A DNA stretch of 53,991 bases, from contig CAZCXI010000003.1 in assembly GCA_964502635.1 (NCBI GenBank), positions 1-53,991 on the forward strand, written 5' to 3'. This document shows, in pieces, positions 1,231-32,389 of this stretch. Below the pieces are notes generated by a model that was not told the DNA's origin, searched no databases, and was given only the letters and a program-made list of their open reading frames with translations. Position 1 is the stretch's first letter, and each line of letters starts with the position of its first letter. A program made the translations under genes and the position numbers. Source of the stretch: an uncultured Desulfobacterales bacterium (lineage in GTDB: Bacteria > Desulfobacterota > Desulfobacteria > Desulfobacterales > C00003060).

Positions 1231-2121
1231 TCATACAAGATTCAGTGACCAGTCATAATCCATATAGGAAATATGAAGCTCACCGGCGAGTGTCCTTAGA
1301 AAAGCCTTTTCTTCCGGGTCATAGCGATACCGGATGATGAAAGCGAGGAGATCTTCCCTGCTGCCAAAGTCGTCCTTATACCATTTAAATATCCTGGACA
1401 GCTTCAGTGTTCCGGCAGCCTTTTCTATCCTAACCTCGTCACTATTGATAAAACCGGTGGTCACCAGGTCCAGTTGTTCATCAATCTCCTTCTCTTCATA
1501 AACGTCAATGGGTGGGCAGGAATTGGAACCGCAGACCAAGGCAAAGTGTATCCTTGGGTCCACCTTTTCAACAACAAGGCGCCTCCTCGGGTCCCCACTG
1601 CCAAAGGGTTTAAGAGACAGAAGGTGTTTCTTCTGATTGGCCCTGAGTATGCCGTGTTCAATGTCATCCAGGCTAAGGGTATAATCCCCAACATTGTACG
1701 AAGCGGCTTCGAAGAACGATGAAACTTCTTTTACGCTTTTCCTGATGTTCAGCTCCAAAATGCCGTGGACCACAAGCGCATTGTAGATATTGATCCAGAA
1801 TGCCAACTTTGCTTCTCTGGTGGTTAAGATGTCTGGATCAAACGAGGAAAGACCCCTTGTTGCGGCCTTGTAATCTCTAAAAGCCTCAGCGTCTTTCATG
1901 CCATCGTAATCGACACCGCCCTTTTCCAGATCATAGAAGTTCAGCTTAAGATGATCCATTCTGCTCTTTAGCTGTTGCGCAATCTCTTTACTGTTCGGCG
2001 AGATAGCTGTTCCATCAGACCGATTGAGAACAAGGGGTTTCATTTGTCTTCCAGATACAGGGGCGTTCTTGTTCAGACCAAGGAACCCCTCTGTGATCCC
2101 GTAAAGGAGGGCCCTTAGCAA
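1231..2121 (-). CDS. DUF547 domain-containing protein (start may be ATG at 2043)
   Basis: Family motifs LAFWINIYNAL, SLDDIEHGILR, DPRIHFALVCGSNSCPP, LSRIFKWYKDDF and YDWSLN. Confidence 0.85.
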   Translation of the reverse strand: MLRALLYGITEGFLGLNKNAPVSGRQMKPLVLNRSDGTAISPNSKEIAQQLKSRMDHLKLNFYDLEKGGVDYDGMKDAEAFRDYKAATRGLSSFDPDILTTREAKLAFWINIYNALVVHGILELNIRKSVKEVSSFFEAASYNVGDYTLSLDDIEHGILRANQKKHLLSLKPFGSGDPRRRLVVEKVDPRIHFALVCGSNSCPPIDVYEEKEIDEQLDLVTTGFINSDEVRIEKAAGTLKLSRIFKWYKDDFGSREDLLAFIIRYRYDPEEKAFLRTLAGELHISYMDYDWSLNLV

Positions 2122-2145: not shown

Positions 2146-2160
2146 CCCATCACCGATGAG
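2146..2160 (-). promoter_or_regulatory. SECIS-like hairpin for the second UGA
   Basis: CUCAUC-GGU-GAUGGG begins 12 nt after the UGA at 2173-2175 and lies in the 3' UTR. Confidence 0.6.
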
Positions 2161-2163
2161 TCG

Positions 2164-2379
2164 TCATACCCCTCACGACCCGCCATAACCAATCTGGACA
2201 TTCTTGTCTTCCACGATGACCGGCACTTTCCGAACGCCGTTGGAAAGTTTCAGCATTTCGTTGAGCTTGTTGCTGTCCTCGAGAACGTCAATGTAGGTGG
2301 CCTTCTCTCCGTAAGCCGACCTGGCTTGGTTGGTGTAGGGTCAACCCAGCTTGCCGTAAATAACGACCTTGTCTCCCAC
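2164..2379 (-). CDS. Glutaredoxin-like selenoprotein with two selenocysteines (UXX-star type), 71 aa
   Basis: Manual translation from GTG 2379 (RBS GGAGGG): MGDKVVIYGKLG-U-PYTNQARSAYGEKATYIDVLEDSNKLNEMLKLSNGVRKVPVIVEDKNVQIGYGGS-U-GV*. In-frame TGA at 2341-2343 (the CPY position of glutaredoxins) and at 2173-2175. Cis-Pro motif KVPVIV is present, and a hairpin follows each UGA. Confidence 0.85.
2313..2327 (-). promoter_or_regulatory. SECIS-like hairpin for the first UGA
   Basis: AAGCC-AGGUC-GGCUU begins 13 nt after the UGA at 2341-2343 and has G in the loop. Confidence 0.6.
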
Positions 2380-2460
2380 GTCATACCCTCCCTGAGGCAG
2401 GGGTTACAGACTTTCTCTTGAACCAGTTGTCACATTTCCATCCTATGCCGAAAGGTGCTG

Positions 2461-4239: not shown

Positions 4240-4680
4240 CTACTTTTTCTTGGGATGGCAGCCCTGGCACGCCGTGGGGCCGGCAGGCTTTCCCGCCTTC
4301 TTCAGAGCCTTGTGGCAGCTTTTACAATTTTCATGAATAGCTGAGTAATAATATCTCTTGACCAATTCCTTCTTGGCCAGTTGTTCGCCTTTGGGTGCCT
4401 CAGCCTCGGTGTGGCAGGTATCACACTTTTGGACGTCATCGCCCTCTTTCCAAACGTTCTTGCAGTCTTTGTACACGTGGTGACACTCGGTGCAGGCAAT
4501 CTTGTAGTCCACATGGTGTTTCTTGTGGCTGAAGGTGACCAGGGCCTTCTTGTGCTTCAAAAAGACCTTTGAGTCCATCGTGATGGTCTCTGGCACCGGT
4601 TGGGTCGCGTAAACTCCTGCAACCAGAAATGCCACGCCTAAGGCTACAGCCGTTAATACCAGCAGTGATCGTTTCTTCAT
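4240..4680 (-). CDS. Class III tetraheme cytochrome c3 family protein
   Basis: Signal peptide, VTFSHKKH, and four CxxCH motifs (CTECH, CDTCH, CKSCH, CQGCH). Confidence 0.92.
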   Translation of the reverse strand: MKKRSLLVLTAVALGVAFLVAGVYATQPVPETITMDSKVFLKHKKALVTFSHKKHHVDYKIACTECHHVYKDCKNVWKEGDDVQKCDTCHTEAEAPKGEQLAKKELVKRYYYSAIHENCKSCHKALKKAGKPAGPTACQGCHPKKK

Positions 4681-5175: not shown

Positions 5176-5293
5176 TTGAACCCTCCCCGCGGCAAGCCAC
5201 GGGGAATCTTCACCGTAAGGATGGTATCATTTCCAGATTCGCTCGCTAACCCCGCCGCAAGCAGCGGGGAAGGCGCTCGCTTTTGCGGTTCAA
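5176..5293 (-). mobile_element. Family A element, copy 2
   Basis: Reverse-complement copy of 2461-2579. Its TTGAA target contains the TGA stop of the gene at 5290-5811. Confidence 0.85.
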
Positions 5294-7297: not shown

Positions 7298-8071
7298 TCA
7301 TGGGACAACGCCCTCAATGGCGATCAGCTCTGCCGTAAAATGGCCGACAGCAACTTTGCTTTTCGCCTTGACAACGATGCGACGATCGTCTGCCGTCACC
7401 CAGAGTTGGAGCTTGGCACCTTCGCTTTTCTTGAAGATTCCACCAATGTGCCGCAGATCTGGTTCAATCAAAAAAGCATCGAACGTTCCAGCCTCCACTG
7501 TCACTATCTCGGGCTTAATCACAGTAGCCCTACCGACGACGCATTTTTTGCCATCGGTTACAGGCACCTCTACCTCAAGCTTGTCTACCAAAGGATTCAA
7601 GCGGAAGACATAAAACACACCCAGGGGATCGAAGGTGCCTGGCAAGAGGGTGACGGTCTTTTTGTGCTTCCCCTTCCTGTAATAGTGAGCCTTGGATTGA
7701 TCCCAATCGAATGCAACCCTGACATCTCTCTTGTGCCTGCCCTCACGTTGTTTCTTCCTGTAGAGGAGCGAATGGGTCATAGATCGGTCCGTGTAAGATT
7801 CAATGTGATCACGTACCTTATAAACAAGGTCAATCATGGGGTATGATCTGACCGAGACTTGGAAAAGGTAGGCGGGTGATCCTAATGCCGCTGCGCCGTC
7901 TGAAACCTGGAGGTGAGCTTCTCCGACAGGAATGACACTCCACTTGAGGACATAGCTCAGTTTTTCGCCGACTTGAAACGGAATCTTGCCCTTGCCAGTC
8001 GGCGCCTGTCCCGCGTCTACCGTAAAGGCCAAAGCTGACATCTGTATGAAAAGAAAAATCGACAAACGCAC
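7298..8071 (-). CDS. DUF3108 domain-containing exported protein
   Basis: Signal peptide, PFQVGEKLSY.LKW..IPVGEA.L, VTVEAGTFDA and LWVTADDRRIVVK. Confidence 0.8.
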   Translation of the reverse strand: MRLSIFLFIQMSALAFTVDAGQAPTGKGKIPFQVGEKLSYVLKWSVIPVGEAHLQVSDGAAALGSPAYLFQVSVRSYPMIDLVYKVRDHIESYTDRSMTHSLLYRKKQREGRHKRDVRVAFDWDQSKAHYYRKGKHKKTVTLLPGTFDPLGVFYVFRLNPLVDKLEVEVPVTDGKKCVVGRATVIKPEIVTVEAGTFDAFLIEPDLRHIGGIFKKSEGAKLQLWVTADDRRIVVKAKSKVAVGHFTAELIAIEGVVP

Positions 8072-8264
8072 GCCTTCTCACCTCGTTCAAAATCTTCCGG
8101 GGCATTTTCCCGAAGGCTGAGCAACATGGCTGGTTTTCTGGATATCATTCGCAGTCAATTGCACAAGAATACTCAAAAAGACCGCAAAGAAAGGCTATTG
8201 TTGCTCTTTTGACCATTTTCCATGTTGTTTATGCAACCATAGGGTTTACAATGGACACGACATT

Positions 8265-12367: not shown

Positions 12368-13429
12368 CTAGGTGTAAATGATACTGTACGGAAGAGGGGT
12401 CTTGTCCCATACGCCTGCCTTGGGTAAAATGCTCTGATTGACGACGGTCATCCAGAAATATTCAGAGTTCAATTCTCTTAGCTTGCCATCCTCCGGGAAT
12501 CTGGCGTGGCTGGTCCGTTCGTAAGTCGTCTGAAAGACCACAATGCCTTCGCCTTCTTCTTCCGCGACGACATAGTTTTTCTTCACCGTCCTGGCTTGCA
12601 GGTTGTGCATCTGGGCAATGTTTTGTATGTCGTTGTCCGTCAGTTTCATGAGTATGTATTTTGAAACGCCCCTTTCCGAGATACGGTACAGGCCCCTTGA
12701 CTCGCAACTTGCTACATATATGGTTGATATGCATGGGACGCGTCTTAGAAACTGCGCCCCAACTACGGAGGCGGTACGGCGTCCGCCTGATGCCGCGGGC
12801 AAGCCATAATACTCAAAAAACTTTTTTTGAATCTCCTCTGCGTAAACTTCTCCCTTCTCATATAGCTCCTTGGATATATATCTCAAATCGCGGGCCATGT
12901 CCTCTGCGGCATCGGCAATGGGCCAGTCAATGCGCACACGGAAATGAGACAGGCTGTATCTATTTCTTGCCTTGATCGTGGGGTCCCGTTGGATGAGAAG
13001 GGCATAGTCAACCGGGAGCAAGCCCTTGAGAAAATCTGAGAACCTGGAAGATTCAAAGAGCTTCGTGTTTCTGGAGTATTTCTTCGAAAACCGGACGGTT
13101 CCAGAACGCATCAAGTTCTCTTTGGTCGTCTTATTGTCATCAAAGAATCGTATGTACTTCTTATAGGCACCGGGAATCACATCTTCAAGAAAGATCACAA
13201 GGAATCGGTTGTGACATTCGTACTCCACATCAGGAATGCGTGCCCTTGGCTTCAGCTCCCTTTTTTCCACGAAAGGATAGGGGAGATGTTGGTCCACAAA
13301 GTGGTGATAAGAATCCACCAACCCGTAGTCTATAAGATATTGGTCCAGTTCGTCCCTGAGGCTTTCATAGACCGACCGTCTCAGTTTGTCTTGGCGGCTC
13401 AACTGTTCACGGAAGTTCCAGTAGGTCAC
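12368..13429 (-). CDS. Hypothetical cytoplasmic protein, 353 aa
   Basis: Long ORF with RBS AAGGAG before GTG; no motif recognised. Confidence 0.75.
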   Translation of the reverse strand: MTYWNFREQLSRQDKLRRSVYESLRDELDQYLIDYGLVDSYHHFVDQHLPYPFVEKRELKPRARIPDVEYECHNRFLVIFLEDVIPGAYKKYIRFFDDNKTTKENLMRSGTVRFSKKYSRNTKLFESSRFSDFLKGLLPVDYALLIQRDPTIKARNRYSLSHFRVRIDWPIADAAEDMARDLRYISKELYEKGEVYAEEIQKKFFEYYGLPAASGGRRTASVVGAQFLRRVPCISTIYVASCESRGLYRISERGVSKYILMKLTDNDIQNIAQMHNLQARTVKKNYVVAEEEGEGIVVFQTTYERTSHARFPEDGKLRELNSEYFWMTVVNQSILPKAGVWDKTPLPYSIIYT

Positions 13430-25473: not shown

Positions 25474-25478
25474 TCCTT

Positions 25479-25597
25479 TTGAACCGCCCAAGCGAGCGCA
25501 TTCCCCGCTGCTTGCGGCGGGGTTAGCGAGCGAATCTGAAAATGAAAAACTTCTTTACGGTGAAGATTCCCCGTGGCTTGCCGCGGGGAGGCTTCAA
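25479..25597 (+). mobile_element. Family A element, copy 3
   Basis: Near-identical to 2461-2579, TTGAA...TTCAA. Confidence 0.85.
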
Positions 25598-31448: not shown

Positions 31449-31459
31449 AAAACCGCAAG

Positions 31460-31578
31460 TTGAGCCGTGAAAGCGAGCGCATTCCCCGCTGCTTGCGGCG
31501 GGGTTGGCGAGCGAATCTGAAAATGAAAAACTTCCTTACGGTGAAAATCCCCCGTGGCTTGCCGCGGGGAGGCTTCGA
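31460..31578 (+). mobile_element. Family A element, copy 4 (ends mutated to TTGAG/TTCGA)
   Basis: Near-identical interior to the other copies. Confidence 0.85.
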
Positions 31579-32270: not shown

Positions 32271-32389
32271 TTGAAGCTCCCTGTAGCAAGCTACAGGGAA
32301 TCTTCGACCGTAAGGAACGCTGACCTTTATAGATACGCTCGCTAACCCCGCAGCAAGCTACGGGGAATGCGCTCGCTTTTTCGGTTCAA
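32271..32389 (-). mobile_element. Family A element, copy 5 (divergent subfamily)
   Basis: Same ends and architecture, with compensatory hairpin CCCTGTAGC-TT-GCTACAGGG. Confidence 0.85.

Follow-up and report, generated by a model that had tools for sequence, protein, structure and literature searches.

UXX-star selenoprotein family 1 (NCBIfam NF041114) is listed in Table 1 of a 2026 review (PMC13188914) as 'Distant Grx-like protein 1', a predicted family with a UxxT motif and two selenocysteine (Sec) residues. This name was not found in the main text of PMC2398784, the 2008 paper credited by the review, and the UXX-star family is not named in the available portions of PMC13326102 and bioRxiv 10.1101/2022.07.06.499078. 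No biochemical study of family 1 was found in the literature searched. A 2025 article in mSystems by Haft and Tolstoy, cited by the same review for the UXX-star families, may already treat their chemistry.

The nearest functional parallels are yeast Grx5 and Chlamydomonas Grx3, glutaredoxins with no second active-site thiol and with a C-terminal residue past a GG kink that is able to pair. According to the available text of PMC3866529, both form a disulfide between the active-site and the C-terminal Cys that glutathione reduces poorly; the corresponding Cys of poplar GrxS12, by contrast, lies 9.6 Å away and forms no such bond. The likeness to the UXX-star protein is a works-like analogy and not membership, as Grx5 and Grx3 use the Cys of IGGCD and continue into a helix, whereas in the UXX-star protein the Sec comes about three residues later and the tail ends the protein. 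A second parallel is selenoprotein L, which has a thioredoxin-type fold with a UxxU motif, and in which a natural diselenide within this redox motif was reportedly described by Shchedrina in 2007. The two Sec of selenoprotein L belong to one short motif, whereas those of the UXX-star gene are 56 residues apart and their diselenide is hypothetical.

The window, i.e. the whole stretch of 53,991 nucleotides that was analyzed, carries a UXX-star gene on its minus strand with the following features.

2164..2379, minus strand: UXX-star selenoprotein family 1 gene, 71 codons and a TGA stop (frame, NCBIfam, Pfam and predicted fold)
2387..2391, minus strand: Shine-Dalgarno-like GGAGG, 7 nt before the GTG start (sequence; retained in the two closest relatives)
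2341..2343, minus strand: TGA codon 13, probable Sec of the UPYT motif, at the site of the glutaredoxin attacking Cys (codon census and alignment)
2173..2175, minus strand: TGA codon 69, probable Sec of the U-G-V-stop tail (TGA in 157/157)
2164..2166, minus strand: terminal TGA, probable true stop (the stop varies and is without hairpin enrichment downstream)
2313..2327, minus strand: SECIS-like hairpin 1, within the coding region, 5 bp, loop AGGTC (pairing in relatives)
2146..2160, minus strand: SECIS-like hairpin 2, in the 3' untranslated spacer, 6 bp, loop GGT (covariation in relatives)

With TGA read as Sec, the frame 2379-2167 encodes 71 residues, among them U13 (context YGKLG-U-PYT) and U69 (context GYGGS-U-GV), and zero Cys. 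A first-pass annotation had described here, with no strand given, a Cys-free 71-codon frame with a ribosome-binding site, ending in GYGGS-U-GV* and missed by ORF calling. All these elements were recovered on the minus strand, where U69 at 2175-2173 is followed by the stop at 2166-2164, and no ORF of at least 50 aa is called at the locus under table 11. The same coordinates read on the plus strand also give an open frame; this reading was rejected, as the described motifs sit on the minus strand. An out-of-frame ATG (window 2383-2385, minus strand), also present in the two closest relatives, overlaps the interval that separates the ribosome-binding site from the GTG start. The Rfam search returned 0 matches at E 1 or better, and the promoter and terminator scan found none. 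In the RNA run X1, 0.21 of the words were present; the X1 contig over the gene is that of a relative and may be DNA, shows 27 differences over 199 nt with the first TGA intact, and was not taken as evidence.

The gene is one more member of the catalogued UXX-star selenoprotein family 1, for which two Sec are already listed. It matches NF041114 with 108.1 bits against a cut-off of 72 (E 2e-31) over model positions 1-70 of 70, and NF041212 with 79.2 bits against a cut-off of 66. The earlier proposal that glutaredoxin homology continues through the TGA at 2341-2343 is borne out by the NCBIfam match and by Pfam Glutaredoxin (PF00462), which scores above its cut-off with E 4.5e-8 and spans this codon. 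The full-model score, the UxxT motif near the N-terminus (UPYT), the two Sec and the U-x-x-stop tail (U-G-V-TGA) are common to the gene and the family, and there is no substantive difference between them. UXX-star families 2 and 3 and the HUGP/GUXX-star fusion (NF041211, NF047338, NF045501) have the same fold and tail type and give significant matches, but the gene stays below their cut-offs (46/100, 50/97 and 52/325 bits); in the part of the source available, the entry for family 2 gives one Sec, and the model of the fusion has 236 positions. The gene is not a class I dithiol glutaredoxin, as it scores 29.5 bits against a cut-off of 90 for TIGR02181 and has UPYT in place of CxxC.

Members of family 1 scoring above the cut-off were found in 29 of 41 relatives and in 98 of 401 sampled genomes of the phylum (the genome under study included). 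Judged by their record titles, close homologues belong mostly to Desulfobacterales, other Deltaproteobacteria and Nitrospirota, which suggests an anaerobic member of the Desulfobacterota as host. A second family 1 gene is present in the same genome on contig C31 (about 7995-8222, plus strand; locus L007), with two TGAs, 97.2 bits, a UPFT motif and the tail U-R-V-TAA. Across the genus, copies of this type mostly adjoin an acyl-CoA dehydratase activase gene (13 loci).

The machinery for Sec insertion, the presence of which had been named as a check on the first proposal, was found in the genome. The selA (620 bits, contig C30), selB (382 bits, C24) and selD (387 bits, C1) genes all score above their cut-offs, and ARAGORN identified a tRNA-Sec with anticodon TCA on contig C93. 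The selD gene carries its own in-frame TGA followed by a hairpin loop at 20 nt.

For a census of the codons in question we examined 172 loci, of which five were dropped (L043, L072, L133 and L136 as incomplete, L073 as a tail-less type); the remaining 167 collapsed to 157 distinct proteins. Codon 69 was defined as the first Sec, Cys or stop codon past the conserved Gly. Codon 13 is TGA in 145 homologues, TGC in 10 and TGT in 2, and never TAA or TAG, counts that come from loci related to each other and taken from the best matches and do not represent independent events. Codon 69 is TGA in all 157 homologues, whereas the codon three places further is TGA in 78, TAA in 52 and TAG in 27. The two conserved codons after codon 69 read GV in 117 of 158 sequences (window included). 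Because of this census, codons 13 and 69 are considered to act as sense codons and the third TGA as a stop.

An extra sample comprised 20 loci chosen for weaker scores or fewer TGAs. Two of them are tail-less CPYC glutaredoxins; the other 18 all have the tail TGA, and at position 13 they show U (7 loci), C (9 loci), Tyr (one locus) or Gly (one locus). The codon of the Gly13 locus is GGA, a single base from TGA. The loci with Tyr or Gly at position 13 and a tail TGA (L204:100-340, minus strand; L205:90-305, plus strand) may be decayed copies, assembly errors or tail-only forms. In seven loci (L203, L212, L214-L217, L222), which possibly constitute a distinct subgroup, the tail runs for 10-14 additional residues up to the TGA, and no stop occurs three codons past it; UPFC or CPFC is seen in some of them. 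Since several extra loci, mostly longer-tailed, have no stop three codons later, the tail TGA may be a plain stop there.

At the protein level, 92 of 136 database proteins have Trp at both sites, presumably TGA translated under another code. Another 36 have Cys13 and end just before position 69; the same end is seen in 6 others, whose N-terminus is broken or missing. One protein diverges ahead of the tail, and 1 fragment (P0028) has, as read from the protein, a Cys in the tail. Cys at both positions was found in 0 of the 136. Homologues with Cys, the search for which had been named as a check, thus occur at codon 13 (12/157) and hardly at codon 69 (0/157 genes, 1/136 proteins). Residues other than Cys or Sec, named beforehand as a refuting observation, occur in none of the 157 homologues and only in 2 of the 18 distant loci with a tail, which have Tyr or Gly at position 13 and come from the sample selected for low scores or few TGAs.

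Each in-frame TGA was said to be followed at 12-13 nt by a short hairpin with a G-containing loop, and this description proved accurate: hairpin 1 starts 13 nt past the first TGA and hairpin 2 12 nt past the second, and both loops begin at 18 nt. The SECIS criteria in section 5 of PMC13188914 are a stem of 4-16 bp, a loop of 3-9 nt with G in the first two loop positions, a loop 16-37 nt past the UGA, and a minimum free energy of -7.5 kcal/mol or lower. Both hairpins lie within the limits for stem, loop size, loop G and distance (three of the four criteria, energy being the fourth). The hairpins alone reach -5.0 and -3.8 kcal/mol, weaker than the energy limit. The 45-nt segments fold at -8.4 and -8.1 kcal/mol, which at z 0.11 and 0.37 is no gain in stability over shuffles; the minimum-energy fold of the first segment lacks hairpin 1. 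As the window hairpins alone are not above shuffles, the case for SECIS elements rests on conservation and covariation in relatives.

Our own hairpin test called for a stem of at least 4 bp, a loop of 3-9 nt with a G, starting 13-29 nt past the codon, and an energy of -3 kcal/mol or better. Of 156 genes, 148 have such a hairpin downstream of U69. Downstream of U13 it is present in 89 of 145 genes, in 66 of them with a loop exactly 18 nt away, and 56 genes failed; for Cys13 the count is 4 of 12. The background is 688/5024 at other in-gene positions and 14-18% in shuffles (399/2900 and 559/3120). After the terminal codon the test was positive in 14 of 77 genes when this codon is TGA and in 24 of 79 when it is TAA or TAG. 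Hairpin 2 was aligned across the window and the 60 distinct loci nearest to it, 61 sequences in all. Its five core pairs are 86.8% paired, 5/5 with two-sided changes, and the two outer pairs 57.9%. For hairpin 1, 96.6% of cells are paired among 53 distinct sequences; for both hairpins the structure was derived from the same sequences as were scored, and kinship inflates these pairing counts. Covariation in both hairpins exceeded 500 of 500 shuffles and every slid control. In hairpin 1, the synonymous third positions match each other in 71 of the 72 Ala-x-Ser forms (C-G in 50, T-A in 21), and the Arg of the loop is encoded by AGG in 71 of 71 against 20% AGG genome-wide.

Together, codon conservation, TGA/Cys exchange at codon 13, covarying hairpins, the full set of Sec genes and scores above the NF041114 and NF041212 cut-offs uphold the earlier assignment to the UXX-star glutaredoxin-like proteins with two Sec, and judged from the sequences, the in-frame TGAs at codons 13 and 69 very likely encode Sec.

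The fold of the protein is predicted to be glutaredoxin-like. An AlphaFold model built from 18 sequences with U replaced by C (pLDDT 86) has the glutaredoxin topology without the final helix and ends in a strand and an unstructured tail, where confidence is lowest (pLDDT 70 in the last block); a single-sequence model with pLDDT 51 was discarded. The top Foldseek matches of the model are glutaredoxins, with a TM of about 0.7 and a best E of 9.6e-4, the sole match below 0.001. In a PDB sequence profile search, 9 glutaredoxins were aligned with position 13 on the first active-site Cys (the C of CPY). The residue at +3 is Thr in 157 of 158 sequences and no other Cys occurs in 156 of 158 (window included), which leaves the tail Sec69 as the only internal candidate for a resolving residue.

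We propose, with a probability of roughly 55% and by analogy with known glutaredoxins, that the protein is a glutaredoxin-like redox enzyme that works independently of glutathione and cycles through a Sec13-Sec69 bond. During its synthesis, SelB would read each UGA by means of its own hairpin, and the third UGA would terminate, since it is 9 nt from the loop of hairpin 2 and thus outside the 16-37 nt range. The attack on a disulfide or another oxidized sulfur or selenium group would come from Sec13, which opens the first helix. The Gly-rich tail, taking the place of the last glutaredoxin helix, would then fold back, and Sec69 would resolve Sec13 by forming an Se-Se bond, or an Se-S bond in the Cys13 forms. 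The Sec13-Sec69 bond could be re-reduced by a thioredoxin-reductase-like or ferredoxin-linked enzyme.

This cycle is proposed because Sec69 is the sole internal partner, because Grx5 and Grx3 provide a precedent, and because no glutathione synthesis gene scores above its cut-off. In the 97% complete genome, gshA and GCS2 have no match and the best gshB match reaches 31 bits against a cut-off of 299; glutathione uptake or genes on missing contigs are possible. By our reading, U69 lies about three residues beyond the position of the IGGC cysteine, which counts against the mechanism, as do the unpaired C-terminal Cys of poplar GrxS12 and the low confidence of the modelled tail. An Se-Se bond is not obligatory, since 12 of the 157 homologues have Cys13.

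Contig C59 of the same genome (about 12800-13290, minus strand; loci L006 and L009) carries a UPHC glutaredoxin gene with one in-frame TGA. It is directly followed by a 408-codon frame in which a CPFC glutaredoxin domain precedes a GAGPAG flavin-binding motif. This frame probably encodes a fusion of glutaredoxin with thioredoxin reductase, which makes its product a candidate reductant.

Position 13 tolerates Cys and, in two distant loci, Tyr or Gly, while codon 69 is invariant in the census, which suggests that the tail Sec may matter more than Sec13. It could be the main reactive group, a swinging arm passing electrons between position 13 and a partner protein, as in the C-terminal Sec arm of mammalian thioredoxin reductase described in the available part of PMC10779653. 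The asymmetric conservation keeps this role in play, as does the lack of Cys at both positions among the 136 database proteins, given that gene callers would easily catch such a form. Nevertheless, we consider it unlikely: position 13 retains the glutaredoxin attacking site and the P of the motif, the database fragment P0028 has a Cys in the tail (protein-level reading), and the word '(seleno)protein' in the NCBIfam names given to families 2 and 3 suggests members without Sec.

A role in binding or handing on a soft metal or metalloid (Hg, As, Cu), with the two Sec as ligands and no redox-pair cycling, would fit the statement in the available part of PMC13188914 that UXX-star Sec may be metal-binding ligands or meet unknown substrates. 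The gene neighborhoods speak on both sides. Among the 98 nearest ORFs of close relatives there are two ArsR genes (L104, L109) and one LMWPc gene (L109), whereas no metal-resistance gene adjoins the present copy, and no arsenic- or mercury-resistance family was detected among 104 further neighbors at E 1e-25, a strict threshold that left many without a match. On balance, metal binding appears a shade less probable still than the reactive tail arm. The recurring families among these 104 neighbors are acyl-CoA dehydratase activase (13), nucleoside-diphosphate kinase (7) and TIGR00730 (5). As the synteny is lineage-level only and the nearest ORFs of relatives vary, the neighborhood was rejected as a functional clue.

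It is very improbable that Sec occurs at codon 13 only and that the TGA at codon 69 ends a protein of 68 residues. Many database forms of 67-68 aa do end just before position 69 (among them the 36 Cys13 forms), and Cys exchange at position 69, the usual proof, occurs in just 1 of 136 proteins and 0 of 157 genes. However, a plain stop would drift to TAA or TAG like the next stop (79/157), which codon 69 never does; in addition, two conserved codons and a second stop follow it, and a covarying hairpin lies at the SECIS distance.

The local surroundings of the Sec13-Sec69 gene in the window include the following features; upstream are a copy of the dispersed repeat and a MORN-repeat gene, and downstream is a DUF547 gene.

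1231-2043, minus strand: DUF547 gene, sharing its frame with the selenoprotein gene through an open spacer (frame and Pfam)
2461-2579, 5176-5293, 25476-25597, 31459-31576 and 32271-32389, in the window: palindromic dispersed repeat of about 120 bp
4240-4680, minus strand, in the window: class III cytochrome c gene (Pfam PF02085)

Read-through of the third TGA as well, giving a 382-residue glutaredoxin-DUF547 fusion with three Sec, is the least probable reading and was rejected: the frame is open from the selenoprotein gene across the spacer into the DUF547 ORF, and in the closest relative the spacer persists together with a DUF547 remnant of about 25 codons, likewise in frame, but the stop is TAA or TAG in 79 of 157 homologues, a hairpin is no commoner after a terminal TGA than after TAA or TAG, the close DUF547 homologues are about 270 aa long, which fits the ATG at 2043 (longer forms being outside the search), and none of 18 DUF547 loci from other genomes has a glutaredoxin gene within the fetched flanks. 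Among all loci retrieved, the two genes occur together only in the genome under study.

No DUF547 gene occurs among the 98 nearest ORFs of close relatives. In some relatives, a DUF547 paralogue is part of frames about 726 codons long, where it apparently forms the rear of a fusion with another domain. The dispersed repeat has 153 matches in the genome, 72 of them at least 100 bp long, and resembles a REP- or MITE-type element. Class III cytochrome c is typical of sulfate reducers.

Since the neighborhoods of the Sec13-Sec69 protein are scattered, with no conserved neighbor pointing to a substrate, they suggest a role in general redox upkeep in anaerobes. More tentatively, and somewhat short of even odds, the protein would be a natural long-range Sec13-Sec69 diselenide enzyme serving as a very low-potential, glutathione-independent carrier in anaerobes, encoded by a minimal mRNA in which, within 180 nt, two UGAs are recoded and a third terminates.

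Because the family is already catalogued, the result for this locus is an annotation fix. Standard gene calling misses the gene, and in public databases its relatives appear either fragmentary or with Trp in place of both TGAs (92/136 proteins). The practical value is thus a corrected annotation, in a family that is common in the phylum and appears uncharacterized. A proof of the diselenide would concern this known family, on which the present locus gives no special handle; if true, the Sec13-Sec69 diselenide would be an additional rare natural case of Se-Se catalysis.
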